Positions 25,756 through 44,207 of a stretch of 64,000 nt of DNA are shown here, piece after piece (positions within the stretch are counted from its first letter, which is position 1; the number at the start of each line of letters is the position of its first letter). The notes beneath the pieces are model-generated. The model saw nothing but the letters and a program-made list of their open reading frames with translations, did not search any database and was not told the origin of the DNA. Where the stretch lies: contig CAKPMY010000001.1 of NCBI GenBank assembly GCA_934168245.1, forward strand, positions 68,761-132,760, in the 5' to 3' direction. This DNA is from an uncultured Bacilli bacterium. GTDB taxonomy: Bacteria; Bacillota_I; Bacilli_A; RF39; UBA660. The position numbers were made by a program, and so were the translations under genes.

Positions 25756-25922
25756 CCTTTCTTTACTTTATATATAACAAATCATCCTAAAATATCACTC
25801 TTTACAAAGTTGAAGTATTTATAAAAAACTAATATTATAAAACAATTTTGTTACCCAAACTATTTAACCTACCTTATAATATATTTTAAACGTAAATGTA
25901 AAATTTTTCAATACAAACCACC

Positions 25923-25951
25923 TAAAAAAGACCTTCTTTTTAAGAAAGTCT
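25923..25951 (-). terminator. Terminator-like hairpin at the 3' end of pilin paralogue 2
   Basis: AGACCTTCTT-TTT-AAGAAAGTCT (10-bp stem, one mismatch) overlapping the stop codon, followed by a U6 run on the minus strand. Confidence 0.4.
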
Positions 25952-27436: not shown

Positions 27437-27472
27437 ACTATAATATCTATTACAATTTTACAAAGAAAAGCA

Positions 27473-27501
27473 TAAAAAAACAAGCCTTAACTTAGGCTTG
27501 T
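27473..27501 (-). terminator. Rho-independent terminator at the 3' end of pilin paralogue 3
   Basis: Perfect 8-bp stem ACAAGCCT / AGGCTTGT (loop TAACTT) overlapping the last codons, followed by U7 on the minus strand. Confidence 0.55.
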
Positions 27502-28991: not shown

Positions 28992-29130
28992 AATATTCGT
29001 CCTTTCTTTTCTTTATATATAACAAACCCAATCCAAATATCATTAAACTATCTACGAGCTGCAGTTACTCATATTCACCTAAACAACATCTGAATAAAGA
29101 TTTTGCTACCTAAATTAATTAATTATTTTC

Positions 29131-29946
29131 TTATCCTTCACTAGAAGTATTTTGATTATCTTGATTCATATTCTGATTATTAATCTGATTATTGTCTTGA
29201 TTATCTACCTGATTAATAACCGAATTATCACTCTGAGTAGTAACTTGACTATCTATTTGATTTACATTCATACTACCCGCATCAGTCTTCTTATTATTCT
29301 TCTTCTTTTTGATAATAAGTACAATCGCCACAATAAATATAATTAAAGCAATTCCAAATATCGCAACATATAGATATATAGTATCAGCTGTATATGGAGG
29401 ATCTACTCCGCCATCTCCTGGATTAACATTCAAAGATTTAGCCTCAGTCTTAGCAAAAACACTTAAATCATACATATAAACATCTTGAATTTCGTTAAAA
29501 TTAGGTAAACTGACTAATAATGGTCCAGATGAATATTCATAATCCTCAGTCTTCTTACTATCAACTCTAATTAAATACAATCCCACTTTTAAATCTTTAA
29601 AAGTAAATTCTCCATTACTATCAGTCTTCGTACTAGCAATATAATTAATATTATTATCACTTATATACTTATTAAGTTTACTAGTATAATCATCCCATTC
29701 AAAACTCTCTAATGTATTAACATCTTCTGTATATCCTACAAACTCATCAACATAAGTATATTTAGCCAACTCACTCATATCAGCAATCTTGTATAAATAA
29801 ACATTAGTATCTGTAATATTAACATCACTGTAATTATACTTACCTATTATACTAGTCAATCTATTAACTTCAATTTCTGCATTTACATTAGTAATAGTAA
29901 AGAAGAATGCTACTATAAAAACAACTAATAATTTAATTTTTTTCAT
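29131..29946 (-). CDS. Small CnaB-like surface protein with C-terminal TM anchor and Q/N-rich cytoplasmic tail, 271 aa (candidate minor/basal pilus component)
   Basis: Signal peptide, TDSNGEFTFKDLKVGLYLIRVDSKK (CnaB/prealbumin-like motif) and a TM helix preceded by VNPGDGGVDPPYTADT (no canonical LPXTG). KKKKNNKK stop-transfer is followed by a ~50-aa Q/N-rich tail. Start abuts the stop of the upstream gene. Confidence 0.45.
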   Translation of the reverse strand: MKKIKLLVVFIVAFFFTITNVNAEIEVNRLTSIIGKYNYSDVNITDTNVYLYKIADMSELAKYTYVDEFVGYTEDVNTLESFEWDDYTSKLNKYISDNNINYIASTKTDSNGEFTFKDLKVGLYLIRVDSKKTEDYEYSSGPLLVSLPNFNEIQDVYMYDLSVFAKTEAKSLNVNPGDGGVDPPYTADTIYLYVAIFGIALIIFIVAIVLIIKKKKNNKKTDAGSMNVNQIDSQVTTQSDNSVINQVDNQDNNQINNQNMNQDNQNTSSEG

Positions 29947-31992
29947 CTACATACCCTCCATCTTTCTTCTCATGTATAATACATATCCACAAGATGCACA
30001 AACTATAACAATAAATCCACCTACTATATAAGGTATATTACCAACACCACCGGTATTAGGTAACATATCTATTTTATCGTTTACAAGATCAACTGTAACT
30101 ACACCTGTTGTATTCGTAATCGTTTGATTTTTAAATGTAATATTACCTGAAGTATCTACAACTACGGTATACGTATCTGGCAATAGTACATATCCTGTTT
30201 GAACTCTAGTTTGTTTTAAATAATATGTAGTACCAGGAATTAAATCAGTAAACTCTAATCCCTCTGCAACTTTAGAAGCATCACTCAAGTTAGAATTACT
30301 ATATAAACTAAATTTACCATCTGATAATACTGTTCCATCATCACTATCTGTCAAATTAACTTTTAATGCCACATTTGCAACTTTAAATGCCACTGAAACT
30401 TTATAATCTTGTGATGTATCTAAGTAATAATAATTATCTGCTAAAGCACCAGTAATTTCTACTGAATTTACATAATCAGCAACTATTTTATCTGTTGCGG
30501 TAAATGTTGCATTAAGAGTAACACTTGCTCCCGCCGCTATTGTACCAATTTTAACTATTTGATCACTAAGTAATGTATAAGATGTACTAGTTGTAAATGT
30601 TGCTCCTGTAAGATATTCTTGTACCATTACATCTTTAATCGGTATACTGGCTGTATTTGTAACTGTAATTTGGAATGGAACTACTTCTCCCTTTTTATAA
30701 CTTGCTTTTTTATTTGGTATTGTAATTGTAATCGTTGGAGAGAAATATCCAGAGAATAACATCCATTCACCATAAATAACTACATCTTCTTCAGGCATTT
30801 CAAATGTCTTACTCTTATACCAACCTAAGAATTTATAACCTGTTGCTACTGGATCATCCGCAACTGTTATTGTTTCTCCTGGTGCATAAGCCACTGTCGC
30901 TGGTAATAGACTATCAGCATTACTAGGCATAACTGAACCTTGGAACTGATAAGAAACATTATATTTAATTAATTCAAACTTACCAGTAATTGAAACATTC
31001 TTACTAGGCATCTGGAATATTCCATCAGTTAGACTAACATCTGTTGATGTCCAACCTAAGAACCTATATCCATTAATAACATCTCCGGCCTTTAATGAAT
31101 CAACAATTACATCATCCCCAGCCCCATAAGATTTAGGAGTTGGTGAAATAAATCCATCTGGAACATTACCAGATACAGAATACGTAACTGTATATTTTGT
31201 TTTTGCTGTAAAACTACCCGTAAATACTACATTGCTAGAAGGCATTGTAAACGAATTATTAGTAACTGTAACATTACTAGTAGACCACCCAGAGAAAGTA
31301 TAACCTGCTACTGTCGGATTAGCCTCAACACCAACTGTTGTACCAGCACTATATGAGTTAGTTGTAGGAACAGGTGCTCCATCAGGAACTGTACCTGTAT
31401 ATTTATAAGTTACTGTATATAAAGTAGCCTCTTCATCACCCATAAATACATGTACTGTATTTGATTTAAAAGAGAAATCATTTTCTCTAGCAAAAGCCGT
31501 ATTATAAAAATCTAGTCTTTTTCCATTTGGCAAATCAGGAGTAGTCGTAACAACACCTACAGTCAACTTACAACCTGCCTGTAAATTCTTTACTTTAAAC
31601 GAAACTGTCCTTGTTGCACTATCATATACCAATCCAGCACTATCTCCAACGACATAACCAGGACAACTAGTACCATCACTACGTTTAACTGCCCCTATCG
31701 TACCATCACTCGTTGTAACAAATTCTTTAAATGTTAATCCATCAGGTAACTTATCTTCAACATATATATAATCACTACTAACATTAGCAGTAACAGTATC
31801 ACTAGAAGAAACTGCTTTAGCATCCTTACCATCATAAATAACATCAATATAATAAGTTAAGTCGCTATTAGGTGCTACTCTGGCTCCAGATTCCAAAGGA
31901 ACTGCAAAAGATCTATTGATAATAACAATCAATAAAGCAACAAATAAAGACAAAGAAAGACCAATAATAATATTTCGTTTCTTGTTCTTCAT
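29947..31992 (-). CDS. LPNTG-anchored surface protein with three Listeria-Bacteroides (Flg_new) repeats and a C-terminal CnaB/E-box domain (candidate tip or ancillary pilin/adhesin), 681 aa
   Basis: Signal peptide. Repeats with AGYTFSGW, NGYRFLGW and TGYKFLGWY. E-box-like YYLKQTRVQTGY. MLPNTGGVGN + TM + RRK at the C-terminus. Confidence 0.65.
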   Translation of the reverse strand: MKNKKRNIIIGLSLSLFVALLIVIINRSFAVPLESGARVAPNSDLTYYIDVIYDGKDAKAVSSSDTVTANVSSDYIYVEDKLPDGLTFKEFVTTSDGTIGAVKRSDGTSCPGYVVGDSAGLVYDSATRTVSFKVKNLQAGCKLTVGVVTTTPDLPNGKRLDFYNTAFARENDFSFKSNTVHVFMGDEEATLYTVTYKYTGTVPDGAPVPTTNSYSAGTTVGVEANPTVAGYTFSGWSTSNVTVTNNSFTMPSSNVVFTGSFTAKTKYTVTYSVSGNVPDGFISPTPKSYGAGDDVIVDSLKAGDVINGYRFLGWTSTDVSLTDGIFQMPSKNVSITGKFELIKYNVSYQFQGSVMPSNADSLLPATVAYAPGETITVADDPVATGYKFLGWYKSKTFEMPEEDVVIYGEWMLFSGYFSPTITITIPNKKASYKKGEVVPFQITVTNTASIPIKDVMVQEYLTGATFTTSTSYTLLSDQIVKIGTIAAGASVTLNATFTATDKIVADYVNSVEITGALADNYYYLDTSQDYKVSVAFKVANVALKVNLTDSDDGTVLSDGKFSLYSNSNLSDASKVAEGLEFTDLIPGTTYYLKQTRVQTGYVLLPDTYTVVVDTSGNITFKNQTITNTTGVVTVDLVNDKIDMLPNTGGVGNIPYIVGGFIVIVCASCGYVLYMRRKMEGM

Positions 31993-32114
31993 ATTGCATC
32001 TCCTTCCTTTATACTATAAACACCTACTATACAAATTAATTATAGCAAAGTAACATTTCAAATTCAAGATAGCAATTATAAAAACCATCTAATTAGTAAT
32101 AAAAGTATATAAAC

Positions 32115-35100
32115 CTATGCAAGAATAAGAACATAAGGATTAGTAGAGGTACCATCACCATAATCAACCTTCATACCAGGTTTAATTGATACAACTGGCC
32201 TAAAATCATTAGAAAAACTAGTCAAACAATACCGAACAAAGGTATTCATATTTACATTTGGACCGTATACTGCAATTCGTGAATTATCAGTTGTTGTACT
32301 TAGAGGTGACATAGTCCAAAAATTTAAAGTACCTAAATATGAAAACGAATAGTATCTACCGGCTAATAAAACCTCATCATAAGTAAGTAATCCAACTGGA
32401 TATTTTAAACCATTTGTTGTAGTAAACTTATCATAGCTGTTATTGCACTTAAGTAACGACGATGCACCATTAAAAAATAAATCATAACCAAAGAAACGTA
32501 CATCGCTAGAGGCAGCAATTTTTCCAATAATTGTATTTTCACTTACCAAAGATGTAGTTATAATTTCACGATTATTACAAAATGTTGCATCTTCCAAATA
32601 ATCTGTATAACTTGTCATATTATTCTTATACCATGTTTCGATCGTAGTTTTCGCATTAGAATCATTAATATTATTAAAAACCTTGGCTTCTTTAAAGGCT
32701 TGTAAATTATAAGCATTAATATCATAATAGGAAATAGTCTCATTTTTATAGTAAATTAAATATTTAACGGAAGCACACTTTGTATTTTCACTAAAACAAG
32801 TGTAGTTATAGCCCTTTGTCAATGTTTCAAATTCATTATATAAATTAGTCACTGACAGACTAATCGTATCTTGCAAAACATATTGTGTACCATCCCATTG
32901 TTCCCAGTTACCAAAAATAATTTTCTTATTTGCAGCCTGTGTTTTTAAATCCGAAGCCAATGAGCCATCATTAAGAGAAACGTATGTCAGATTACCTTCA
33001 TTATAAGAAATAACATAATATATATTAGAACAAGAAACATCAGAAGAATCTGGACACACATAATAATCCGCCAGAGTTTCATATTTTTCTGCCCATACTA
33101 TTTTTTGACCAATGTAACTTGCCACCTTATAATTTCCACTACTATAAGTTGCAGAAGTAGAAGCATTCATATATATTGGAACATAATAAGCCTCAGTAGA
33201 AGTCCCTCCAACTATATAAACAGGTTCACTGCAACTACTAGAACCATCTAAACAAGTATAATATTTTTTATATGAAGTACTCCAAGTATCCTGAGTAGCA
33301 TTATTAAGAACATAAGTACCATCAAAATTGTTACGTTGTAATGAAGAATAACTAGAAGTAAAATAGTATTTTCCAGTACCCATTGTTTGAGTCTTACTTA
33401 TATTAATAGTACTAGTAGTTAATCCCAATACATCATACCATTTAGGCATAGTATATGTTTTTACTTTTTCAAGACTTCCATACATATAACCAACACTAGC
33501 AATAGAACCAGGATCAGTATTAAAAGCACCTTTTCCTATACTACAAGCAGTATTAGTACACTGATTATTACTATTAGGAAGACCATTATATAATATCTTT
33601 ACACCACCAGTATCGGTAGTTCTAACTATTTTCCAACAAAATCCAGCAAACAACAAGTTATTATCATCAATAGAACCATGATAATAATGAATTGGATAAT
33701 TATCATTTGCAGTTGAAGAATAAGTATAAACTCCTTTATTTGTAGTCGTAGTACTAGTAAGATCTAAATTAGTATCCAAAGTAGCCTTACCTGCCACAAT
33801 ATCATATAAAGTAGCAGCCTCATAAATAGTTCCATCCACAGTTTTATTCATAGAAGCCTTAGCCCAAGTTGCTTTCAAAGTAACCGCATAAGGTGGCATA
33901 ACAAAATTAGTACCCTTACGTTCAACATTAGTATCATCTATTTGCCAGCCCTTAAACTCATAACCAGCACACACTGGAACAGTACTAGAAATATCAACTA
34001 CACTAAATGGATTATGATAAATAGTATATGGCAAATGATTTATTGTACAATCAGAAGGAGCATTTCCATCATAAACAACAGGATAGGCATTAGCAAGAGC
34101 CGGAGTGTCAGTACTAATAATGGTCTCAGAAACATCACCAATCTTATAATTGATTGCTACCTTTCTAAAAAGTGGATATACACCAACTGCACCTTCCGAA
34201 TACTTATCTTTTAATTTTAAATCAAAACTCATTGTAACAGGAAATCCTGTAGCAAGTCGATTATCTGAACCTTCATTACCAAAAAACCATATCATTCTTG
34301 CACCAATAATATTGCCTGAAGTACCAAATGTTACATTTGGTTTGATATTATCAATAGAAAAAACATCAGTATTTATCAAAGTATCAATACTAAATAAATC
34401 ATAATCTACATATCGCACCATATAATCTATGTTTGAAATAATTCTATAAAAAGAAGAAAGATCAGTTCCAACATATTGAACATCACTCATTTCTTTTAAA
34501 ATATCACTTTTGTTTCCACCAACATTATACTGAACAGCAAAAAAGTTTTTTATTTCTGGATAGTTTTTTCTGATATTATTATACGTTTCCTTTTCTTTTC
34601 CCATATCTCGAGCCGGATCACCATCAGTAATTAATACAACCCAAATATCATTGTCACCATAATCAGTAGAAGTTTCAAGGAGTTCATTTAAAGCATCTAA
34701 TGCCGAATAGTAACTAAGCCCAGTACTCCCATCTAAATTACCATATGATGTTGAGTTAAGTTCAGTAAGATCAGTACCAAAATCACTTGCTATCTCGGCT
34801 ACTGAATTAAATTTTATAACTGCTAAAGAGTTATCACTATTTTTTGAAAGAAAACTTCGTCCAAATGCACGAATACGGTTTTTCATTGTAGTAATATCTA
34901 TAGTATCATCCACTAACAATACTAAATCTATAGGTTTAATATCTTTTGCCATAGCAACACTATCAAGTTTAAAAGTTACTCGTACTCTGCCCTTAGAAAC
35001 CCATTCTGCATTTACATCAATATTCCAACTTCCAGGATCATCGTCTTCAGATGAAAGTTTTGTTGATTGATATGTGATGTTTTTAACTTCCACATCTGCC

Positions 35101-35207
35101 GCAAATGAATTAGTAAGTGTAAATACAAAAACAAAAATTAAAATTAAAGATAATAAAAATAATAAAGACTTCTTTTTAGTAAAAAAACTAAAGACTTTCT
35201 TTAACAT
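32115..35207 (-). CDS. Giant secreted vWA-domain protein with a Flg_new repeat and C-rich C-terminal region; no sortase signal; 1030 aa
   Basis: Signal peptide. vWA-like DLVLLVDDTIDIT...VVLITDGDP. CAGYEFKGWQ repeat. Long Y/T/S/C-rich C-terminal 550 aa ending ...KVDYGDGTSTNPYVLILA with no TM or LPXTG. Confidence 0.55.
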   Translation of the reverse strand: MLKKVFSFFTKKKSLLFLLSLILIFVFVFTLTNSFAADVEVKNITYQSTKLSSEDDDPGSWNIDVNAEWVSKGRVRVTFKLDSVAMAKDIKPIDLVLLVDDTIDITTMKNRIRAFGRSFLSKNSDNSLAVIKFNSVAEIASDFGTDLTELNSTSYGNLDGSTGLSYYSALDALNELLETSTDYGDNDIWVVLITDGDPARDMGKEKETYNNIRKNYPEIKNFFAVQYNVGGNKSDILKEMSDVQYVGTDLSSFYRIISNIDYMVRYVDYDLFSIDTLINTDVFSIDNIKPNVTFGTSGNIIGARMIWFFGNEGSDNRLATGFPVTMSFDLKLKDKYSEGAVGVYPLFRKVAINYKIGDVSETIISTDTPALANAYPVVYDGNAPSDCTINHLPYTIYHNPFSVVDISSTVPVCAGYEFKGWQIDDTNVERKGTNFVMPPYAVTLKATWAKASMNKTVDGTIYEAATLYDIVAGKATLDTNLDLTSTTTTNKGVYTYSSTANDNYPIHYYHGSIDDNNLLFAGFCWKIVRTTDTGGVKILYNGLPNSNNQCTNTACSIGKGAFNTDPGSIASVGYMYGSLEKVKTYTMPKWYDVLGLTTSTINISKTQTMGTGKYYFTSSYSSLQRNNFDGTYVLNNATQDTWSTSYKKYYTCLDGSSSCSEPVYIVGGTSTEAYYVPIYMNASTSATYSSGNYKVASYIGQKIVWAEKYETLADYYVCPDSSDVSCSNIYYVISYNEGNLTYVSLNDGSLASDLKTQAANKKIIFGNWEQWDGTQYVLQDTISLSVTNLYNEFETLTKGYNYTCFSENTKCASVKYLIYYKNETISYYDINAYNLQAFKEAKVFNNINDSNAKTTIETWYKNNMTSYTDYLEDATFCNNREIITTSLVSENTIIGKIAASSDVRFFGYDLFFNGASSLLKCNNSYDKFTTTNGLKYPVGLLTYDEVLLAGRYYSFSYLGTLNFWTMSPLSTTTDNSRIAVYGPNVNMNTFVRYCLTSFSNDFRPVVSIKPGMKVDYGDGTSTNPYVLILA

Positions 35208-35369
35208 ATTTTTCTCCTGTCTGTCTGTCTAAGGATAGATTTTTTCTGTTTATTTGCCAACATATTTATCACCATCTTTACTATTCTTAACCATAATAAT
35301 TGTACTATATAGTATAGTTTTTTTCAAGTATCAGAAAAATCAAAAAAGACATCATCCTAAGACGACATC

Positions 35370-35921
35370 TTATATAAATAAATACTCTGGTTTTTTATAA
35401 TTCAAAGAATAATTTTTATCATCTCTATATTCTTCAACTAAGACTACTTTCTCTTCTTCTAAACTCTTCTTAACATCAATTATTCTTTGATTCCTAGAAC
35501 CTCTAAAATAAATATCTAAACTCTTCTCTTCCAAAACAAATTTACCATCTACTAATATATCAATATAATCTAATAATTTTCTTTGTTTTGGATTATTAAT
35601 AATAGTCTCATATGTAAAGCCTGTATAACACCAAACACTAAGTCCCATCTCTTTCGCAGCCTTACATATTTCTATACAAGCGTCACTTTGACACATTGGA
35701 TCTCCTCCAGATAAAGTTATTCCATCTTGTCCCTCTATATTTTTTAACTCTTCAATAACTTCTTTTATATCTACTAGAAATCCTCCATTAAAATCATGTG
35801 TCCCAGGGTTATGACAGCCTTTACAGTTATGTGGACACCCTTGAGTCCACACAACTGTCCTTATTCCTTCACCATCTACTATTGAATCTGGTTGTAAATC
35901 AGCGGCTAATCTAATTTCCAT
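35370..35921 (-). CDS. nrdG: Anaerobic ribonucleoside-triphosphate reductase activating protein (radical SAM)
   Basis: CPHNCKGCHNP radical-SAM cluster motif of NrdG, ~180 aa, immediately downstream of nrdD. Confidence 0.85.
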   Translation of the reverse strand: MEIRLAADLQPDSIVDGEGIRTVVWTQGCPHNCKGCHNPGTHDFNGGFLVDIKEVIEELKNIEGQDGITLSGGDPMCQSDACIEICKAAKEMGLSVWCYTGFTYETIINNPKQRKLLDYIDILVDGKFVLEEKSLDIYFRGSRNQRIIDVKKSLEEEKVVLVEEYRDDKNYSLNYKKPEYLFI

Positions 35922-36124
35922 TCTTGCATTCGTCTTTTAATAAGTCTTTTACTCCAGAATGTTTTACACGATCCCTTTCTTCTGCTCTTTTACCATTATT
36001 AAATCTTGAAACATCTCCTGCTAAATATCCTGTAACTCTTCTAATTCTTTCAAACTTTTCTCCTTCGCCAACTATTTTTTCCATAAATATTCCTCCTACT
36101 TCTTTTAATTAATTATTTATTTAT

Positions 36125-38440
36125 TTATCTACCACAACACTCAGGTGCTGTAATTTGTTCTATTGGAACTCCCTCAAATTCATGTCTTCCACATCCTGGA
36201 CAAACATCATTAATTACACCAACATATCCACATACTGGATCTCTATCTACTGGATGGTTAATAGCTCCATAACCAATACCAGACTCTTTCATTATACGAA
36301 TAACCTTTTCAAAAGCATCAACGTTACTAGCAACATCTCCATCTAATTCAATATAAGAAATATGTCCACCATTAGTTAATTCATGATAAGGTGCTTCAGT
36401 CTTAAGTTTATCAGCAATACTAATATTATAATAAACCGGTACATGGAATGAATTAGTATAATATTCTCTATCAGTAACACCTTTAATCTTTCCATAAATT
36501 GCTTTATCAATAGATGTAAATCTACCAGATAATCCTTCTGCTGGAGTAGCTAAACAAGTAAAGTTTAAATTATATTTAGCCGAATTTTCATCACATCTAT
36601 TTCTCATAAACTTAATAATTTCAAGTCCTAATTTTTGACTTGCTTTACTCTCGCCATGATGTTCCCCAGTTAAAGCTTTTAAACATTCAGCAAGACCAAT
36701 AAATCCGGTTGATAAAGAACCATGTTTCCATACTTTTCTAAGTCTATCAGTTGGTTTTAACTTCTCACCATTAGTCCAAACTCCTTGTCCTAATAAGAAT
36801 GGGAAGTTATATGAATGTTTACTACATTGAACTTCAAATCTTTCAAGTAATTGATCACGAACCTTATCCATAATCTCTCCAAGTTCTTCATAAAAACCTT
36901 TCATATCTGCTTTATCTCTTTCTTTTAAAGCAATACCATGTTTAATACCAAGTCTTGGTAAATTAATTGTTGTAAATGATAAATTTCCTCTACCTGTAAC
37001 AACTTGATTATCTGGAGAAGTAACATCTGCTAAAACTCTTGTACGACATCCCATATAAGCTATTTCTGTATTAACATTTCCCGGTTTATAAAATTGTAAA
37101 TTAAATGGAGCATCTACAAATGCAAAGTTAGGGAAAAGTCTCTTAGCAGAAACTTTACAAGCTAATTTAAATAAATCATAGTTAGGATCTTCTTTATTAT
37201 AGTTAACTCCTTCTTTTACTTTAAATATTGATACTGGGAATATTGGAGTCTCTCCATTACCTAAACCTCTATCAGTTGCTAAAAGTAAATTTCTAGTAAC
37301 CATTCTTCCTTCTGGAGAAATATCAGTACCAAAGTTTACTGAAGAAAACGGTACTTGGGCACCGGCTCTAGAGTGCATTGTATTTAAATTATGAACAAAA
37401 GCTTCCATTGCTTGTTGTGTAGCTCTATCAGTCTTTTGTAAAGCCTTCTCACTTGCTAATTTAAATATTTCTTTTACTCTATCTGATCCTTTTTGATAAT
37501 CACTAAACTCTTCTAAATTAACTTCAATTGACTCTATCTTATCAATCTCACGAATAATTCTATCTAAATTAATAACACCAATAAAACCATCCAAATCTAA
37601 AAAGTCATATACAGTTTGTTTAAATTGTTTCTTAAATGTTTTTAAAACACCAGGAGCCAAATAATAATCAAGCGCTGGTATAGATTGTCCACCATGTTGA
37701 TCATTTTGATTAGCTTGAATAACTATAGCAGCCAAAGAACTATAAGTTGAAATATCTTGTGGAGGTCTTACATACCCATGTCCCGTATCAAAACCATTCT
37801 TAAATAATCTTGATAAATCTATCTGACAACAAGTAGTAGTACCCATTGCTAAGAAATCCATATCGTGAATGTGAATCTCACCTTCATCATGCATCTTAGC
37901 ATATTCTGGTTTCATTAAATATGCCTTAGCAAATTCTCTTGAAACTGTCGAACCATATTGAAGCATAGTACCCATTGGACTATTACCATCAATATTAGCA
38001 TTTTCTCTTTTTGCATCTTCTTCATTAGCAGACTTAAGTCCTAAATTCTCTAGCGATTTTAAAAACTTATGAGTCTTCTTATCATCAAAGAATGATTGAC
38101 GAGATTGTGCTCTTCTTTCACGATATTCTGAAAAAGATTTATAAACATCCTCATATCCTTTAGAAGATAATTCATCTTCAATAAAATCTTGAATTTGTTC
38201 AATTTGGAACTTATCAGTATTTTTTGCTTCTTTTTCGATTCTCTTTAAAACAGCCTGATACACTTTTTGAATATCTTTACTATCATATTTACGAAGTTTA
38301 TCATCTTCACCATTATCTATTGAAACACTATCAAAGCCTTTCTTTATTGCTAAAGCTATTTTAGTCTCATCAAATGGTACTTTCTTTCCATTTCTCTTAA
38401 CGACCATTAATTGGTCTAATTTGTCGCTTACTTCTACCAT
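36125..38440 (-). CDS. nrdD: Anaerobic ribonucleoside-triphosphate reductase (class III), paralogue 1, 771 aa
   Basis: N-terminal ATP-cone (VVKRNGKKVPFDETKI), glycyl-radical region PVCGYVGV and a C-terminal Cys cluster (CPGCG...CCG). Confidence 0.9.
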   Translation of the reverse strand: MVEVSDKLDQLMVVKRNGKKVPFDETKIALAIKKGFDSVSIDNGEDDKLRKYDSKDIQKVYQAVLKRIEKEAKNTDKFQIEQIQDFIEDELSSKGYEDVYKSFSEYRERRAQSRQSFFDDKKTHKFLKSLENLGLKSANEEDAKRENANIDGNSPMGTMLQYGSTVSREFAKAYLMKPEYAKMHDEGEIHIHDMDFLAMGTTTCCQIDLSRLFKNGFDTGHGYVRPPQDISTYSSLAAIVIQANQNDQHGGQSIPALDYYLAPGVLKTFKKQFKQTVYDFLDLDGFIGVINLDRIIREIDKIESIEVNLEEFSDYQKGSDRVKEIFKLASEKALQKTDRATQQAMEAFVHNLNTMHSRAGAQVPFSSVNFGTDISPEGRMVTRNLLLATDRGLGNGETPIFPVSIFKVKEGVNYNKEDPNYDLFKLACKVSAKRLFPNFAFVDAPFNLQFYKPGNVNTEIAYMGCRTRVLADVTSPDNQVVTGRGNLSFTTINLPRLGIKHGIALKERDKADMKGFYEELGEIMDKVRDQLLERFEVQCSKHSYNFPFLLGQGVWTNGEKLKPTDRLRKVWKHGSLSTGFIGLAECLKALTGEHHGESKASQKLGLEIIKFMRNRCDENSAKYNLNFTCLATPAEGLSGRFTSIDKAIYGKIKGVTDREYYTNSFHVPVYYNISIADKLKTEAPYHELTNGGHISYIELDGDVASNVDAFEKVIRIMKESGIGYGAINHPVDRDPVCGYVGVINDVCPGCGRHEFEGVPIEQITAPECCGR

Positions 38441-38736
38441 AAATTAACCTCCACATAAGTAACATTCTTTCCTTCATTTTAGAAACTAATTATAAAAAAA
38501 TCAATACAAAAAATGACACTTTTTTTACCATTTTTTTCAATACGTTGATATATAAAGAAAAGCTCCAAAAACTTTTTTTGTTCGATTTACGACAATTGAC
38601 ATTTTTATACATTTAAGAAAATTGCAACAGCACATTTTTTATTTTTTTGCAAGTGTTTTTCAACCAATTTCCTTATTTTTCAACAAAACAGTATTTCCAT
38701 AAAAGAAAAAAATTAAAAAAATGTAAAAATCATTTT

Positions 38737-39207
38737 TTACAATTTCTTAATTTTTGTATCAGTTGAACCAAAACCTCCATTTCTAGAACCAAATGCATTA
38801 TCGTTATCAACAACTAAATATTTTGTAAACACAACTTGTCCTATTACATCGCCTTTCTTAACCTCAATGTCATGATCACTACAGTTAAAATAAGCAAAGT
38901 AAAAATGTCCATCATTATCTGGATTACCATAATAATCTGCATCTATTAATCCTACACTATTTGCCATTAAAAACCCTTTCTTAGGCCCAGAACTACGATT
39001 TAATAATAAATAGCATTCATCATCCATACAATAAGCCTTTAAGCCTGTTGGAATAAGTGTAGGCTTAATTCCTGGTTTATACATAGGAATAACTATATCT
39101 TCCGCTGCTTCAACATCATATCCAGCCGAATGGGCTGTCTTTCTAACCGGTAAATTAATTCCTTTATCTTCATATCCTTTTACTACTTCAAATCCACGTT
39201 TTCTCAT
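38737..39207 (-). CDS. dut: dUTP diphosphatase
   Basis: RSSGPKKGF, GLIDADYYG and RNGGFGSTD dUTPase motifs, 156 aa. Confidence 0.85.
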   Translation of the reverse strand: MRKRGFEVVKGYEDKGINLPVRKTAHSAGYDVEAAEDIVIPMYKPGIKPTLIPTGLKAYCMDDECYLLLNRSSGPKKGFLMANSVGLIDADYYGNPDNDGHFYFAYFNCSDHDIEVKKGDVIGQVVFTKYLVVDNDNAFGSRNGGFGSTDTKIKKL

Positions 39208-39749
39208 TATACTTCTCCTTTTAATATCTTATTATTATCTATATATAAATTAATAATTCCAGTATCTAAACTACTTCTAACATCAATAATCCTCTGATTA
39301 CTACTCCCAACATAATGTAACTTTTCTAAAGCCAGACTCAATACAAATCTTCCCTCTAATAAAACATCAACATTATCTAAAATCGTTTCTAAGTTTTTAT
39401 CTTCTTTTACTTCTTTCATTAACTCTTCCCAAGTATATCCAGTATAACACCAAATATTCTTATCAGGAAATTTACTCTTAATCTCTTTAACTAATAAACT
39501 AACTTCTTCTCTATTCCCAACATATAAAGGATCTCCTCCTGATAAAGTTAAGCCACTACACCAACTCTTCTCTAATTCAGCAAATACTTCCCTCTTAGCC
39601 TCCTCATCAAAGATAAGTCCATCATTAGCATCCCAAGTAATTGGATTCTGACAAGCCTGACAATGATGAGAACATCCTGCTAGCCATAACACTACTCTAA
39701 GTCCATCCCCATTTAACATATCAGCCTTTGTAATATTATGGTATCTCAT
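39207..39749 (-). CDS. nrdG: Anaerobic RNR activating protein, paralogue 2
   Basis: LAGCSHHCQACQNP radical-SAM motif, 180 aa. Start overlaps the upstream stop (ATGA). Confidence 0.85.
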   Translation of the reverse strand: MRYHNITKADMLNGDGLRVVLWLAGCSHHCQACQNPITWDANDGLIFDEEAKREVFAELEKSWCSGLTLSGGDPLYVGNREEVSLLVKEIKSKFPDKNIWCYTGYTWEELMKEVKEDKNLETILDNVDVLLEGRFVLSLALEKLHYVGSSNQRIIDVRSSLDTGIINLYIDNNKILKGEV

Positions 39750-40066
39750 AACTTCTCAACATCCCCATGACTATAATATAAGACTGGTTTATTTAATAAT
39801 TCAGCCCATTCAATCTGACTCTTAGTACTACTACCAATATAACCATCTTTATCAATAACAATAACTATATCACTACGACATACCTTCATTTTAGCAGCCG
39901 TATCTAATATCTTCTTAGTCCCAACCCCACATTCTGGTACTTCTCCAGATTGATTATAAACAGACGGAGTAAACACTAAATATCCTTTCAAAGCCAATTT
40001 CTCTTCAACCGCTAAAAAGACATCCCTAAATTTAGTACTTCCAATCAATAAAACAACACTATACAT
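39746..40066 (-). CDS. Hypothetical small protein (106 aa) embedded between nrdD2 and nrdG2; possibly a Rossmann-like nucleoside-deoxyribosyltransferase-like fold
   Basis: ORF tightly coupled on both sides: 1 nt after the nrdD2 stop, and its stop overlaps the nrdG2 start. The VVLLIGS...DIVIVIDKDGYIGSST pattern suggests a small alpha/beta fold. Family assignment is a guess. Confidence 0.4.
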   Translation of the reverse strand: MYSVVLLIGSTKFRDVFLAVEEKLALKGYLVFTPSVYNQSGEVPECGVGTKKILDTAAKMKVCRSDIVIVIDKDGYIGSSTKSQIEWAELLNKPVLYYSHGDVEKL

Positions 40067-42196
40067 CTACATCGACTTCCTTTCTGATATTTCAACCATC
40101 TTTGCATTACTAAGCATTGTATCCCCATGTACTCTAGAATAAGACAAATATCCATTCATTCTATCAATTTTAGTTAAATCACTACTACCACACTTAGGAC
40201 ATACATCCATATCTAACTCCTCATGTCCACAACTATTACAATAAGCCAGACTCAAATTAACTCCTTCATAAAAACCTAGCTCCATTGCCCTTTCTATATA
40301 AGTAAGCATAGCCTCATTATTATAACTTAAATTATAACGTACATATTGAATACGTCCACCCTTAAATAATTCCCAAAAACGATTCTCTAAATCCTGTTTT
40401 TCAATACCAGTAATATCTTCCCATACTCCACAATGGAAACTATTAGAAACATACTCTCTCGAACTTACTCCTTCAATAACTCCATACTTCTTTCTAAATT
40501 GTTTAATCTGCAATCCACATAAATTCTCAGCGGGAGTACCATATATTGCATATAAAACATGATCTTCTTCTTTAAACTCTAATATCTTCTTATTAATATA
40601 TTTTAAAACCTCTAAAGCAAACTCCCCATCTTCAACAATACTCTTTCCATTATATAAAACTTGTAACTCATTCAAAGCCGTTATTCCAAAAGATGCTGTT
40701 GAAGATTTAAGTATTGGTTCTATTGCCTCCTCTGGTTTTAAATTACCTCCATAAAATCCTCCCTGACAATAAGCAAGAGGATTAGTAGAAGCCTTTCTCT
40801 TCGCCAAATATCTATAAGTCCTAATATGAACCCTTCTAATCATTTCCAAATAATAATCTAAAACTTCATAAAAGTCTCTTTGCTCTTCTCTAGCCTTTGC
40901 TAAAATCATCGGTAAATGTAATGACACCGCTCCTATATTAAATCTTCCTATAAAAACTGGTTTATCATTTTTATCTTCAGGATTCATTCCGCCTCTTTCA
41001 TACCAAGGAGATAAAAATGCCCTACATCCCATCGGACTAACAACTCTTTTATATTTTTTATACATCTCACAGACATAACCTTCTCCAGTTAATGATAAAT
41101 AATCTGGATACATTGTCTTTTGACTACACTTGATCGCTGCTAAAAAATTATCTCTTAACTCGCCACCCTTACCATGCAATTTCTTATCATATAAAAATAC
41201 TAATTTAGGAAACAAAGTCGGTCTTTTAAATCCCTTCTTCCCCTGTCCTTCTCTATGTACATCTAATATAACCCTACTAATAAGTTTCGCATAAGGATCC
41301 GTATCAATTCCAAATGAAAAAGTCACAAACGGATAATCTCCTCTACTAGAACTAACTGTATTAAGTTTATATTCTATTCCTTGGTACCCTTGTTCACATT
41401 CTCTTTTTACTTTCTCCCAAGCATATTTATCTGCTTCATCTTTAAAAGTATCTCCCTTAATATCCAAATACTCATTATAATATTTTTTATAAGTCATCTT
41501 TGCATATTTTTTAAGTATTGTATCAACCTCAGGTACTGTAAATCCACCATACTGCATAGCCGTAGTATTAATAATAACATCACCCATAACATTAAAAGCT
41601 GTCTGTAATGTCTTAGGTTCTGTATACCATATATTACTCATCTCAAACCCATCTTTTAATACATTAGCCATATCAAATAAACAACAATTCATCGTATCAC
41701 GTCTTGCACTCATATCATGTATATAAATATACCCATCTTTACAAGCCTCTATCTCATTAGCCGTTAAAAAGAATTTCTTATAAAGTTCTTTATTCAAACT
41801 ATTATAAATCAAACATCTCTGTGTAGTAACTAAAGCACTATCCATATTAGCACATTCTTTATCTCCAATATAAGTAATTACTTGTGCCTTTTTATATACT
41901 TTATCCAATATATGAACTATCTCTTTTTTATAATCTCTATATTCTCTATAACTTCTCGCAACTATTGGATTAATCTGCTCTAAAGCTGCCTCTACAAAAT
42001 TATGTACTTGTTCTACACTAGGATTAGTAGTCTGTGTATTAATCATATCTTTAACTATTAAAACAATTTTTTCAACTGCCTCATCTGTTAAATTAACCAT
42101 TACTCTCTCAGTGCTAGTCTTAACAGCCTTTCTTATTCTATCTGCATCAAACTTCTCTAAATTACCATTTCTTTTTACTATCTTAATCTCTTGCAT
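40067..42196 (-). CDS. nrdD: Anaerobic ribonucleoside-triphosphate reductase (class III), paralogue 2, 709 aa
   Basis: ATP-cone (IVKRNGNLEKFDADRI), CNSCGHE...CPKCGS zinc ribbon and RMNGYLS glycyl-radical region. Confidence 0.9.
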   Translation of the reverse strand: MQEIKIVKRNGNLEKFDADRIRKAVKTSTERVMVNLTDEAVEKIVLIVKDMINTQTTNPSVEQVHNFVEAALEQINPIVARSYREYRDYKKEIVHILDKVYKKAQVITYIGDKECANMDSALVTTQRCLIYNSLNKELYKKFFLTANEIEACKDGYIYIHDMSARRDTMNCCLFDMANVLKDGFEMSNIWYTEPKTLQTAFNVMGDVIINTTAMQYGGFTVPEVDTILKKYAKMTYKKYYNEYLDIKGDTFKDEADKYAWEKVKRECEQGYQGIEYKLNTVSSSRGDYPFVTFSFGIDTDPYAKLISRVILDVHREGQGKKGFKRPTLFPKLVFLYDKKLHGKGGELRDNFLAAIKCSQKTMYPDYLSLTGEGYVCEMYKKYKRVVSPMGCRAFLSPWYERGGMNPEDKNDKPVFIGRFNIGAVSLHLPMILAKAREEQRDFYEVLDYYLEMIRRVHIRTYRYLAKRKASTNPLAYCQGGFYGGNLKPEEAIEPILKSSTASFGITALNELQVLYNGKSIVEDGEFALEVLKYINKKILEFKEEDHVLYAIYGTPAENLCGLQIKQFRKKYGVIEGVSSREYVSNSFHCGVWEDITGIEKQDLENRFWELFKGGRIQYVRYNLSYNNEAMLTYIERAMELGFYEGVNLSLAYCNSCGHEELDMDVCPKCGSSDLTKIDRMNGYLSYSRVHGDTMLSNAKMVEISERKSM

Positions 42197-42251
42197 AATT
42201 ACTTCTCCTACTCTATGTATAAAATTCTATCTTAATAAAAAAAATATTACT

Positions 42252-42265
42252 GTTGCATTTGCAAC
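42252..42265. promoter_or_regulatory. 14-bp perfect palindrome GTTGCA-TT-TGCAAC in the divergent nrdD2 / crp-fnr intergenic region (candidate operator)
   Basis: Read directly; located 56 nt from the nrdD2 start and 45 nt from the regulator start. Confidence 0.3.
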
Positions 42266-42309
42266 TAATACAAAAATTTGCTAAAATAAAAATACAAGGA
42301 CTGATTAAA

Positions 42310-42933
42310 ATGATTGAAACTATTGAAAAAGACAAACTCATTTACTTTAAAAAAAACTTGTCAAACTGTGTCAATGTCTCTAAAAAGGTATACACTAACA
42401 AACAATTAATAATAAGTAACTTTTCTACTAAAAAACAAATTGGTTTTATAACTTATGGAAAAGCCTCTATTATCAAAACTGACATCAATGGTAACACCAC
42501 TATTATGAGGGAATTAAAAGAGGATGACATCTTCTCTAATTTATTTTTTCAACACTCTGAAGATGAAATTTATATTATTAGTAATAATGAAACTGAAGTA
42601 ATTTTTATTGACTACTATACTATCTTAAAAAATTGTAATAAAGGTTGTCCCTTCCACAATAACTTAGTAATTACTCTTTTCGATTTACTTATAAAGGATA
42701 ATCGTAAACAAAATGAAAAAATAGAACTCTTATCTCAAAAAACAGTTCGTGATAAAATACTCTATTTCTTAAAACAAAGAATGAACAAGGACAACATTTT
42801 TAAAGTAACAACCTCATACAAAGCCATTGCTGAATACATCGTCGTAGATAGAAGTAACTTAATGCGTGAATTAAACAAACTAGAAAAAGAAAACCTCATC
42901 GAAAGAAATAAAAATACCATCAAAATAAAATAG
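42310..42933 (+). CDS. CRP/FNR-family transcriptional regulator (cNMP-binding-like domain + C-terminal HTH)
   Basis: C-terminal YKAIAEYIVVDRSNLMRELNKLEKENLI HTH typical of the Crp/Fnr family. Start is at an internal Met with an AAGGA RBS. Confidence 0.65.
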   Translation: MIETIEKDKLIYFKKNLSNCVNVSKKVYTNKQLIISNFSTKKQIGFITYGKASIIKTDINGNTTIMRELKEDDIFSNLFFQHSEDEIYIISNNETEVIFIDYYTILKNCNKGCPFHNNLVITLFDLLIKDNRKQNEKIELLSQKTVRDKILYFLKQRMNKDNIFKVTTSYKAIAEYIVVDRSNLMRELNKLEKENLIERNKNTIKIK

Positions 42934-42989
42934 AAGTCTCTCATAAAGTTTAATATTATGAAAGTCTTCTATTTTTCTTTTTCTAAATC

Positions 42990-44207
42990 CTAATCTACTA
43001 CTACTATAGTCTCTATAGTTCCAACATTACCAACTTCATCATAGGCCTTTATTATAACTCTTTTGCCTTCAGCACTAGTCGAATCAGTAAAAGGTGAAGT
43101 ATAAAAGTAATGATATGTATTATCACAAGTAGAACTAGCATTGCCAGAATCATTTTCACACCATGCCCTAAGAAGAACATTTAGAAATGTTCCAACCGCT
43201 CTAATCTCATACTTTTTTTCAACATTATCTCCGTCCGGATAAGTATAAGTCCATTTAACGATACCAGAACCATTTTCTTCGAAATCTACTTTTAGATACC
43301 TATAAGTAGCAATGTATGGTTTCAATTCAAGCGATGTTACACTTTTCAACTTAGGCGGTTCATTATCAAAAAGCAACTCTCCAGAAGCAACATTATCAGT
43401 ATAGGAATTTCCATTTATATCTACCATTCGTATTGGTTTCGCAATCAAATAAAGTCTACCTGTAACACCTTGTAAGATTACAGTTCTCTCCATTTGTTTT
43501 GTGCCTGCTGAATTACCAAATGAGATTGCACCAGCAGTACCAGCAACCTGATTATTACCAGCAGCATCTGTAGCCAAGTAATAAGAAACAACCGTATTAG
43601 CCGCAAAACTATCATCGGAAGTAACCTTTATAGTAGCTTTTCTATTCCTCTTCCAAGTACTTCCATCTTCTGGTGAAATTGAAATTGTAAAATTACCAGT
43701 ACCTATTACAACAGTACCACCACCTCCGGAGCCGCCAGAACCGCCTCCTCCGCCAGGAGTTTCGCCACCACCAGGACTTGCTCCACCTGGGCAAACCTCT
43801 AAATGATCTGTTTGATACTCAACTTTTCCAGAACTAGAAACACACTTCAAAAACACTTTATAAGTATCTACACCATTTTTTCTTACAACATGGACATAAG
43901 TCTGATTATTATCACAAGTTATTCCTCCTGTTAAATAATCCTTTGCTAAAGTCTTGGCCTTTAATTCCGAAAAAGGAATATCAGCACATCCAGTAGTAGC
44001 ATACCCAAACAAATCTGGACTATTAGAGTCAACATAAAGTTTTGCTGAATCTTTCAACGTATCTCCATAAGTAATAAACTTCTGTAATCTATTTTTTGCC
44101 TGTAACTGTTGTACCTCTGGTAAAGCCAAAATAGATATAAGTCCCATAATTGTTATAGTAACTAAAACTTCAACTAAAGTAAAACCTTTATTATTTATTC
44201 TCTTCAT
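42990..44207 (-). CDS. Type IV pilin-like protein (prepilin-type N-terminal cleavage/methylation domain), large (405 aa) with Gly-rich linker
   Basis: MKRINNKGFTLVEVLVTITIMGLISILALP: G/FTLVE prepilin peptidase site with Glu at +5. PGGGETPGGGGGSGGSGGGG linker. No pilB/pilC/pilT in the window. Confidence 0.6.
   Translation of the reverse strand: MKRINNKGFTLVEVLVTITIMGLISILALPEVQQLQAKNRLQKFITYGDTLKDSAKLYVDSNSPDLFGYATTGCADIPFSELKAKTLAKDYLTGGITCDNNQTYVHVVRKNGVDTYKVFLKCVSSSGKVEYQTDHLEVCPGGASPGGGETPGGGGGSGGSGGGGTVVIGTGNFTISISPEDGSTWKRNRKATIKVTSDDSFAANTVVSYYLATDAAGNNQVAGTAGAISFGNSAGTKQMERTVILQGVTGRLYLIAKPIRMVDINGNSYTDNVASGELLFDNEPPKLKSVTSLELKPYIATYRYLKVDFEENGSGIVKWTYTYPDGDNVEKKYEIRAVGTFLNVLLRAWCENDSGNASSTCDNTYHYFYTSPFTDSTSAEGKRVIIKAYDEVGNVGTIETIVVVD

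Follow-up and report, generated by a model that had tools for sequence, protein, structure and literature searches.

A stretch of 64,000 nucleotides (nt) from the genome of an uncultured Bacilli bacterium (contig CAKPMY010000001.1, referred to below as the window) carries, between positions 35,370 and 42,196, two adjacent gene modules for class III (anaerobic) ribonucleotide reductase (RNR). Module A encodes a catalytic subunit, NrdD, of 709 amino acids (aa), a 106-aa protein termed x106, the activase NrdG and the dUTPase Dut; module B encodes a second NrdD of 771 aa, a 57-aa peptide and a second NrdG (Table 1). Both reductases are predicted to be of the formate type and to differ in architecture, the enzyme of module A being a single chain and that of module B a two-piece NrdD, in which the glycyl-radical loop would be carried by the small peptide. 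We put the probability of this reading at about 0.7. A two-piece class III RNR with an autonomous glycyl-radical peptide is, on comparison of the available sequences, an undescribed and widespread variant, the function of which we infer below. A literature search returned no paper describing a split class III RNR of this kind, most subscription journals lying outside that search.

The Large Subunit of Module B

The 771-aa protein holds an ATP-cone, the barrel, the βA cysteine (Cys204), a finger loop made of Met463-Gly-Cys465-Arg (YMGCR) and a zinc ribbon with D734, C737, C747 and C750. Its profile matches stop early, at position 533 of 562 for Pfam NRDD and at position 715 of 746 for NF005497, i.e., 29–31 positions short of the end of the models. 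The alignment with its closest solved relative, the NrdD of Prevotella copri (PDB 8p23; E 3e-170), covers residues 8–709 of the 743 residues of the latter. The chain ends 19 residues past the ribbon motif CPGCGR (residue 752), and no RxxGY radical motif was found after the zinc ribbon in this chain. In the P. copri enzyme, residues 676–739 form a mobile domain that contains the zinc site, followed by the buried Gly711 loop and the tail (PMC11226230). The break in the split NrdD falls exactly between the zinc ribbon, which is kept on the large chain, and the glycine loop. On these alignments, the 771-aa NrdD is incomplete and lacks a glycyl-radical loop in the same polypeptide.

The sequence-only reading of this DNA had reported a difference between the C-termini of the two NrdDs. 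The difference itself is real, as one of the two enzymes is split, but the motifs that had been paired are not homologous. The PVCGY of the 771-aa protein, which had been taken for the radical region, corresponds in the alignments to the first zinc knuckle (P. copri, CLDCGY; 709-aa NrdD, CNSCGH) and not to the RMNGY of the 709-aa protein, the true counterpart of which is RRVTGY on the 57-aa open reading frame (ORF). Similarly, the terminal CCG, which had been read as part of a zinc motif, belongs to a variable tail and contains no conserved zinc ligand. A zinc site completed by the terminal Cys-Cys pair was considered and ruled out, since split and unsplit relatives have one and the same ribbon (H/D...C...CxxC, Asp standing in for the first cysteine), while the tail cysteines are variable and dispensable for it.

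The tails of the large subunits (window positions 36125–36180; loci L014–L080) often end in CC or CxC, as in ECCGR, NCCE and CGCGR, and these endings vary. Many of the small peptides are also cysteine-tailed (KCCEN, CSCTK, DECKNGN), in a manner that is again variable and not universal. A more extreme truncation is observed in one Clostridia metagenome-assembled genome (Lapin-028_bin33; loci L079, 6001–8178, and L084, 1260–3422), where two NrdD-like ORFs with 58–60% identity to the 771-aa protein end immediately after the barrel (...GIGYGAIRSGVKF), with neither zinc ribbon nor glycine loop and with no glycyl-radical ORF in the available sequence.

A Separate Glycyl-Radical Peptide

Reading the 203-nt interval between nrdD(771) and nrdG in three frames reveals a 57-codon ORF, with the sequence AGGAGGA located 7 nt before its ATG and an overlap of 11 nt with the start of nrdG. 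Its product, MEKIVGEGEKFERIRRVTGYLAGDVSRFNNGKRAEERDRVKHSGVKDLLKDECKNGN, starts with MEKIVGEGEKFERIRRVTGYL and holds the radical loop RRVTGYL, in which Gly19 is the predicted radical residue. The peptide matches NRDD/NrdD models only, over no more than the last ~35 positions of the NrdD profiles; its precomputed Pfam assignment is PF13597, and it shows no glycyl-radical domain of the pyruvate formate-lyase type. Residues 11–44 of the peptide align with residues 707–740 of the P. copri NrdD, i.e., the radical-glycine loop and the tail that follows it. The P. copri chain is thus tiled by two pieces, the large one covering residues 8–709 and the small one residues 707–740.

Protein databases contain 1811 homologues of the peptide at E ≤ 1e-3, the best 120 of which are all 53–83 aa long, and some of these homologues occur on hundreds of contigs of up to 1.8 Mb. 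They are named either "anaerobic ribonucleoside-triphosphate reductase" or "hypothetical protein" at NCBI. In independent metagenome assemblies, gene callers report the same small ORF with a Pfam NRDD match.

Conservation and Distribution of the Split

A species survey, in which the 771-aa protein was used as the query against one genome per GTDB species, returned 80 loci: 57 are split, 20 are single-chain and 3 have no glycyl-radical ORF in the available sequence. The taxa are mostly uncultured gut organisms designated "Bacilli bacterium" or "Tenericutes/Mycoplasmatota", together with Candidatus Faecimonas, Onthousia, Pelethosoma, Coprovivens and Clostridium sp. CAG:609. The single-chain relatives, which read ...CPGCGRTEADGVKFERIRRITGYL..., include Holdemania, Ruminococcaceae and other Clostridia.

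The small ORF was characterized in detail in 60 split loci, comprising the 57 species loci and three metagenome contigs. It encodes 50–61 aa, starts with ATG in every case and is preceded by a motif resembling the Shine–Dalgarno (SD) sequence in 59 of the 60. It begins 1–176 nt (median 21) after the stop codon of the large ORF, and its frame relative to the latter is 0, 1 or 2 in 21, 21 and 18 loci, respectively. The motif RR[I/V]TGYL is invariant, and the median ratio of nonsynonymous to synonymous substitution rates (dN/dS) is 0.11 over the first 44 codons (25 species, 300 pairs). The large ORF is intact and 66–85% identical across the split species, and nrdG is located downstream of the small ORF in nearly all split loci.

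These data bear on two other accounts of the broken gene. The 771-aa gene could be a decaying pseudogene resulting from a nonsense mutation, the 57-aa ORF being a leftover and the 709-aa enzyme the functional one. Indeed, a complete second NrdD is encoded 4 kb away, and fragmented phage nrdD genes of unknown cause exist, for example in phiAS4. However, 57 species-level genomes show the same break, a second nrdD is absent within 6 kb in most of them, and the large ORF remains intact, with an activase gene following in nearly all cases. Decay is therefore very unlikely, because the small ORF always has its ATG and nearly always its SD-like motif, its radical motif is invariant, its dN/dS is low and the arrangement recurs across species. 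The second account supposes that the two ORFs are rejoined into one chain, either by recoding (a frameshift, read-through or translational bypass) or by splicing out of an intron or intein; group I introns and inteins are frequent in the nrdD genes of phages (T4, Lactococcus phage 949, Clostridium phage c-st). This is effectively ruled out, because the spacers are too short for an intron or intein, contain several stops and place the two ORFs in all three frames equally often, and because no intron is matched in Rfam; in addition, every small ORF has a start codon of its own, and the SD-like motif is missing from only one. On the strength of these comparisons, the split is real and kept by selection, and is not an accident of one assembly.

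The split also occurs in phages. Among 80 viral contigs carrying an NrdD of the 771-aa type, 17 have a separate glycyl-radical ORF, 56 are unsplit and 7 have no glycyl-radical ORF in the available sequence. Some of the stand-alone glycyl-radical ORFs of phages share an N-terminal extension of ~50 residues (…EIAAY…KYG..L.G..I…LTY…) ahead of FERIRRITGYL (L182, 4767–5069; L221, about 4880–5113; L239, about 6060–6341). In the viral contigs L239, L245 and L200, the small ORF lies 1.1–1.9 kb from the large one.

The junction itself carries a possible trace of how the gene was divided. Single-chain relatives have one copy of the segment (E/D)GVKFERI, placed between the ribbon and the glycine loop. 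Split forms carry the segment (E/D)GVx(F/I)E(R/K)I twice, at the end of the large chain (EGVPIEQI in the present case) and at the start of the small one (GEKFERI). This doubling suggests that the fission arose by duplication across the junction, and the two copies possibly form a strand-pairing docking site. In a neighbour-joining tree, most split forms fall into one large clade, and one split form is found among distant Clostridia. The history is compatible either with one fission plus transfers or with several fissions.

A Model for the Two-Piece Enzyme

In the model that we propose for module B, the ATP-cone, the barrel, the finger loop of the thiyl radical and the zinc ribbon all stay on the large protein, while the buried radical-glycine loop and the C-terminal tail would be supplied as a separate peptide. 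NrdG would take a hydrogen from Gly19 of the free peptide, and the charged loop would then enter the barrel beside Cys465 and store the radical, so fulfilling the role of the covalent C-terminus in the P. copri and T4 NrdDs. Given that a radical loop is lacking in the 771-aa protein, the peptide would be an obligatory component, i.e., a built-in counterpart of the spare part GrcA/YfiD, which serves pyruvate formate-lyase. The arrangement would probably pay off under oxygen: cleavage at the radical glycine would then cost just a 57-residue peptide. Activation in trans, docking and this repair benefit are what we infer; the gene structures, motifs, conservation and distribution are what the sequences show. 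More generally, it appears rather probable that the system represents a natural obligatory two-component glycyl radical enzyme, in which a free radical peptide of 50–60 residues is charged by the activase and docks into a barrel without a radical site. Such an enzyme would allow cheap replacement and possibly control through peptide supply, and would be common in uncultured gut Bacilli and Mycoplasmatota and in some phages.

It could also be imagined that the 57-aa peptide is an optional spare part for oxygen-cleaved 709-aa NrdD and not an obligatory partner of the 771-aa protein. GrcA/YfiD acts in this manner, and both reductases coexist in this genome. We regard this possibility as unlikely, given that the peptide resembles the C-terminus of the PRK07111/P. 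copri type and not that of the 709-aa type, that it is always encoded between the truncated nrdD and its nrdG, and that most split genomes show no NrdD of the 709-aa type nearby; moreover, the 771-aa protein has no loop of its own and needs one.

Three observations weigh against the two-piece model. All split genomes are metagenome-assembled; several unsplit relatives are nested among the split ones in the neighbour-joining tree; and the presence of a complete second NrdD in the same organism means that the split enzyme could be dispensable here.

Relation to Known Systems

Oxygen cleaves glycyl radical enzymes at the radical glycine, and the sole known remedy is the action of GrcA/YfiD on pyruvate formate-lyase. 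According to a June 2026 review, spare-part proteins are known among glycyl radical enzymes for the formate lyases only, the situation of the others being undetermined (PMC13450708). GrcA/YfiD and the T4 protein Y06I are, like the 57-aa peptide, small stand-alone homologues of the C-terminal glycyl-radical loop. GrcA is charged by the activase of its enzyme and acts in trans within the barrel of its large partner, as envisaged for the peptide, and it overlaps a strand retained by the large protein, which is a further likeness to the split NrdD. One major difference is that GrcA is an optional repair part whose partner keeps its radical domain, whereas the 771-aa protein has none. Furthermore, GrcA has 127 aa and a pyruvate formate-lyase partner, while the peptide has 50–61 aa, an RNR partner, a match to NRDD and a gene located within the nrdD-nrdG operon.

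The single-chain NrdD of the P. copri type (8p23; NF005497/PRK07111) provides the reference for the intact enzyme. Its ATP-cone, barrel, MGCR loop, ribbon, glycine loop and tail are collinear with the split pieces, and it has a dedicated nrdG adjacent, as in module B. In the split form, the cut separates the ribbon from the glycine loop, with ~20 extra residues at the end of the large piece and ~10 at the start of the small one.

Reductases in two pieces are known from other RNR classes. The class II NrdJa/NrdJb pair and the 'genes-in-pieces' class I NrdA of Aeromonas phage Aeh1 resemble module B in being encoded by two consecutive ORFs, the products of which assemble non-covalently into a functional enzyme. 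However, their break points are different: the NrdJ split detaches a zinc-finger/IscU-like domain that shuttles reductant, the Aeh1 break results from insertion of a homing endonuclease, and, unlike in module B, the element that bears the radical is not the detached part in either. In phages, nrdD is known to be interrupted by an intron or intein, or to be fragmented, as in T4 (sunY), Lactococcus phage 949, c-st and phiAS4 (PMC9669993, PMC3653736). Most of these genes are either made whole by splicing, of RNA or of protein, or have an unknown status, and their break points lie elsewhere, whereas the split NrdD has no intervening element and a small ORF with independent translation signals.

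If the model holds, it would answer the question of whether glycyl radical enzymes other than the formate lyases have detachable radical parts. The peptide, at ~6.5 kDa, would be a minimal substrate for studying how an activase recognizes and charges the glycine loop. The model also bears on the survival of DNA-precursor synthesis through oxygen pulses in gut anaerobes with small genomes. In practical terms, the large subunits are now annotated as ordinary NrdD, and surveys that go by protein length or by the presence of the glycine motif will assign them wrongly.

Module A and the Reductant Type of the Two Enzymes

The 709-aa NrdD matches PF13597 (E 2.4e-110), with NRDD covered up to position 560 of 562, and TIGR02487 (537 bits for a cut-off of 326). 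A single chain holds the βA cysteine (Cys170), the finger loop Met388-Gly-Cys390-Arg (PMGCR), the zinc ribbon C653/C656/C666/C669 and Gly682 (RMNGY), and the alignments with T4 NrdD and with 9d3x extend through the glycine loop. By these matches, it is a complete single-chain class III RNR catalytic subunit.

Class III finger loops are informative about the reductant. A single cysteine after methionine (MGCR, as in Escherichia coli and T4) marks formate-dependent enzymes with a Met-Cys thiosulfuranyl radical, while double-cysteine loops are of the SCCR or MCCR type, associated with thioredoxin, or of the QCCR type, which defines NrdD3 (PMC9669993, PMC4493059). Both NrdDs of the window have a single-cysteine MGCR loop together with the βA cysteine (CC), and the alignments show a double-cysteine loop (SCCR, MCCR or QCCR; NrdD2/NrdD3 types) in neither. 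Judged by these motifs, both carry the formate-type signature and correspond to the NrdD1 of Wei et al.

The suggestion of the sequence-only reading that the two enzymes use different reductant systems thus finds no counterpart in the motifs: those defining the subclass are the same, and the C-termini are not equivalent, as one enzyme is split. It could still be argued that the region encodes two complete NrdD/NrdG systems whose C-termini reflect formate versus thioredoxin or glutaredoxin dependence, since the paralogues are strongly divergent and the two NrdDs fall under different NCBIfam models. This seems very improbable in view of the finger loops, of the lack of any glycyl-radical motif in the 771-aa protein and of the assignment of its PVCGY to a zinc knuckle.

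Several observations connect module A to phages. The 709-aa NrdD matches the phage NrdD family phrog_487 end to end and is 47% identical to the NrdD of Vibrio phage ICP1, and a viral contig (L143) encodes an NrdD 62% identical to it, together with nrdG and an x106-like gene. Because of these matches, module A looks like a member of a mobile, phage-shared pool of nucleotide-metabolism genes. The best 'phage' match of the 709-aa NrdD, MT835545.1 (66% identity), was dropped as evidence of phage origin, being an unverified scaffold that looks bacterial. This sequence (25685–35884; L094) was deposited as 'UNVERIFIED: Bacteriophage sp.', carries genes near nrdD that, judged by eye, resemble those for thioredoxin reductase, DapF and MATE proteins, and is probably bacterial DNA.

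The gene order nrdD(709)-nrdG-dut-nrdD(771)-peptide-nrdG is kept in ~20 loci, in which the large subunit shares at least 82% identity with the 771-aa protein, and more distant split species have no second nrdD within 6 kb. The pairing of the two systems beside dut, which had been described as uncommon, is therefore not a one-off but a layout conserved among related loci. Nor is the duplication of nrdD as such remarkable, given that multiple copies of one RNR class per genome are common (PMC4390871). In one related species (L010, 6860–8396; L011, 3760–5296), the first operon gains a 149-aa ORF without family match between nrdG and dut, as well as a thymidine kinase gene after dut; the nucleotide-metabolism cargo of the module therefore varies.

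The 106-aa Protein x106

The x106 protein has 71 close homologues (54–100% identity), and a profile search recovers 6362 cluster representatives, many with two tandem copies. Conservation of this ORF is thereby established. No Pfam domain is matched above threshold, PF05014 and PF14359 give no match at the gathering score, searches of sequence profiles against PDB chains yield no meaningful match, and PHROGs contain no family for it. The AlphaFold model, with a mean predicted local confidence (pLDDT) of 93, is matched by Foldseek to nucleoside 2'-deoxyribosyltransferases (NDTs) and DNPH1 with template modelling (TM) scores of ~0.7, and the same fold is that of MilB. Below threshold, 7 of 26 x106 relatives touch DUF4406 and a few touch the deoxyribosyltransferase model. 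The closest known relatives are proteins of the DNPH1 (Rcl), NDT, DUF4406 and 1T1J types, relative to which x106 is minimal, at 106 aa, and has Gln in place of Glu.

In the wider family, strand 1 is followed by the motif CGS[T/M][K/R]F and strand 4 by GYIGxSTxxEIEYA. Of 190 domains, 177 have the Glu in question, as do all 80 viral copies; it is replaced by Gln in 68 of 68 close homologues, the x106 subfamily (Gln84). Similarly, a His at alignment position 58, found in 145 of 190 domains, is Ala, Thr or Val in the subfamily. The family Glu would occupy the position of the catalytic nucleophile of NDT and DNPH1. Two points limit this equivalence: the position of the nucleophile is assigned from the motif and the predicted secondary structure, and hhalign of the x106 family against human DNPH1 gives an E-value of 0.06, which is not significant.

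Homologues of 66–100% identity occupy the same slot between nrdD and nrdG. A further 15 sister species have the cluster but lack the gene, nrdG coming directly after nrdD, and homologues of 59–62% identity are found elsewhere, in one context with an RNHCP-domain gene and argS as neighbours and in another flanked by tex and the gene for a sporulation sigma factor. Phage contigs contain at least 466 matches to Glu-type relatives, which lie within 5 kb of nrdD/nrdG in 15 of 80 phage contigs, often in the order nrdD-nrdG-x106-like with dut nearby. Owing to its absence from the sister species, x106 is, on present comparisons, an optional passenger from a phage-rich DNPH1/deoxyribosyltransferase-like family. 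Of the earlier idea that it is a nucleotide-handling protein specific to the 709-aa system, the nucleotide-handling part agrees with the fold, and the specificity does not survive, given the species without the gene and the homologues located elsewhere.

The protein has probably lost glycosidic-bond cleavage and would bind a deoxynucleotide or nucleoside rather than cleave it. It could instead be an active dNMP N-glycosidase or deoxyribosyltransferase that tunes the deoxynucleotide pool of the reductase through residues other than residue 84. The fold shared with NDT, DNPH1 and MilB, the polar residues invariant in the subfamily (E21, Y29, Q39, D72 and Y76) and the phage relatives beside nrdD-nrdG and dut would be in keeping with such an activity, which nevertheless appears doubtful, as both the family Glu and the His are replaced in all close homologues and the gene is dispensed with in the sister species.

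Some x106 homologues occur in other contexts. A 117-aa protein (P0068; 19 members on 23 contigs) has an N-terminus resembling the start of the NrdD ATP-cone (…ILIIKRNGNLEEFDPERIEKTF) followed by the last ~85 residues of an x106 homologue, a fusion consistent with a deletion that took out nrdD and left its first codons attached to x106. Homologues outside nrd clusters have a small RNHCP-domain (PF12647) gene next to them or 3.5 kb away (L005, 7673–8324; L012, 6001–6324 and 9783–10085), and in L012 the x106 homologue overlaps the stop codon of a gene for a 276-aa Thr-rich protein with a predicted membrane anchor.

Regulation

The product of the Crp/Fnr-family gene divergent from nrdD(709) contains an HTH_Crp_2 domain and a weak cNMP_binding match. 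A homologue of this regulator (58–100% identity) is found divergently upstream of the 709-type nrdD at every locus that holds this nrdD. The palindrome listed in Table 1, located between these two divergent genes, starts 69 nt upstream of the nrdD(709) ATG and is the sole match in the window, where 0.06 would be expected. An exact copy is located 67–89 nt upstream of the 709-type nrdD in 20 of 21 related loci, and the remaining locus has a copy with one mismatch. The palindrome is probably the operator of the Crp/Fnr-like regulator, to which module A would probably respond. Its sequence differs from the classical FNR box, TTGAT-N4-ATCAA.

Nothing comparable to the palindrome is found upstream of the split nrdD. 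The earlier proposal that the two modules are regulated differently is therefore plausible, the palindrome and the Crp/Fnr-like gene being upstream of the 709-aa operon only. No NrdR box was detected near either nrd operon, the total for the window being at chance level. A promoter scan gave no more sites than shuffled sequences, the terminator after nrdG being the sole noteworthy item, and an Rfam scan of positions 35000–43000 returned nothing at E ≤ 0.1, i.e., no riboswitch or intron.

Gene Layout and Flanking Region

The two modules are transcribed in the order nrdD(709)-x106-nrdG-dut and, after a 296-nt spacer, nrdD(771)-57-aa ORF-nrdG. The x106 ORF abuts nrdD(709) and overlaps nrdG by 4 nt. 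All ORFs on which the sequence-only reading was based were recovered at their coordinates on the − strand. The ATP-cones that it had noted are confirmed by Pfam and NCBIfam, both NrdDs consisting of an ATP-cone and an NRDD domain, and both adjacent activases score above the TIGR02491 cut-off. Its description of two divergent class III systems adjoining dut also holds, the identity between paralogues being 24% for NrdD and 39% for NrdG.

Table 1. Features of the nrd region, in window coordinates.
Feature	Position	Strand	Evidence or remark
nrdD, 709 aa	42196..40067	−	ORF; Pfam and NCBIfam
x106, 106-aa ORF	40066..39746	−	ORF; deoxyribosyltransferase/DNPH1/DUF4406-like fold (predicted)
nrdG, 180 aa; predicted radical S-adenosylmethionine (SAM) activase of the 709-aa enzyme	39749..39207	−	TIGR02491, 183.8 bits (cut-off 126)
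dut, dUTPase, 156 aa; closes the first operon	39207..38737	−	PF00692; NF010561, E 1.8e-45 (below its cut-off); phrog_135
nrdD-large, 771 aa; putative split class III RNR	38440..36125	−	NF005497, 1002 bits (cut-off 764)
Small glycyl-radical ORF, 57 aa; putative split RNR	36084..35911	−	Translation; C-terminal match to NrdD profiles
nrdG, 183 aa; predicted activase of the split enzyme	35921..35370	−	TIGR02491, 162.7 bits (cut-off 126)
Terminator-like hairpin, 11-bp stem then T run; ends the second operon	35346..35371	−	
Crp/Fnr-family regulator gene, 207 aa from ATG (mechanical ORF starts at TTG 42253)	42310..42933	+	
Perfect palindrome GTTGCA-NN-TGCAAC	42252..42265	n/a	Candidate operator

Across the whole window (1–64000), the − strand carries every one of the 29 ORFs that reach 250 aa, and the GC skew is strongly negative throughout (−0.19 to −0.50), with a G+C content of ~29%. 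Such an extreme gene-strand bias is of the kind seen in Bacillota and Mollicutes-like genomes. The modules are flanked at 32115–35207 by a gene for a 1030-aa protein with a signal peptide and faint Flg_new_2 matches, and at 42990–44207 by a gene for a 405-aa protein whose N-terminus resembles that of type IV pilins (KGFTLVEVLV) and which contains a Gly-rich linker.

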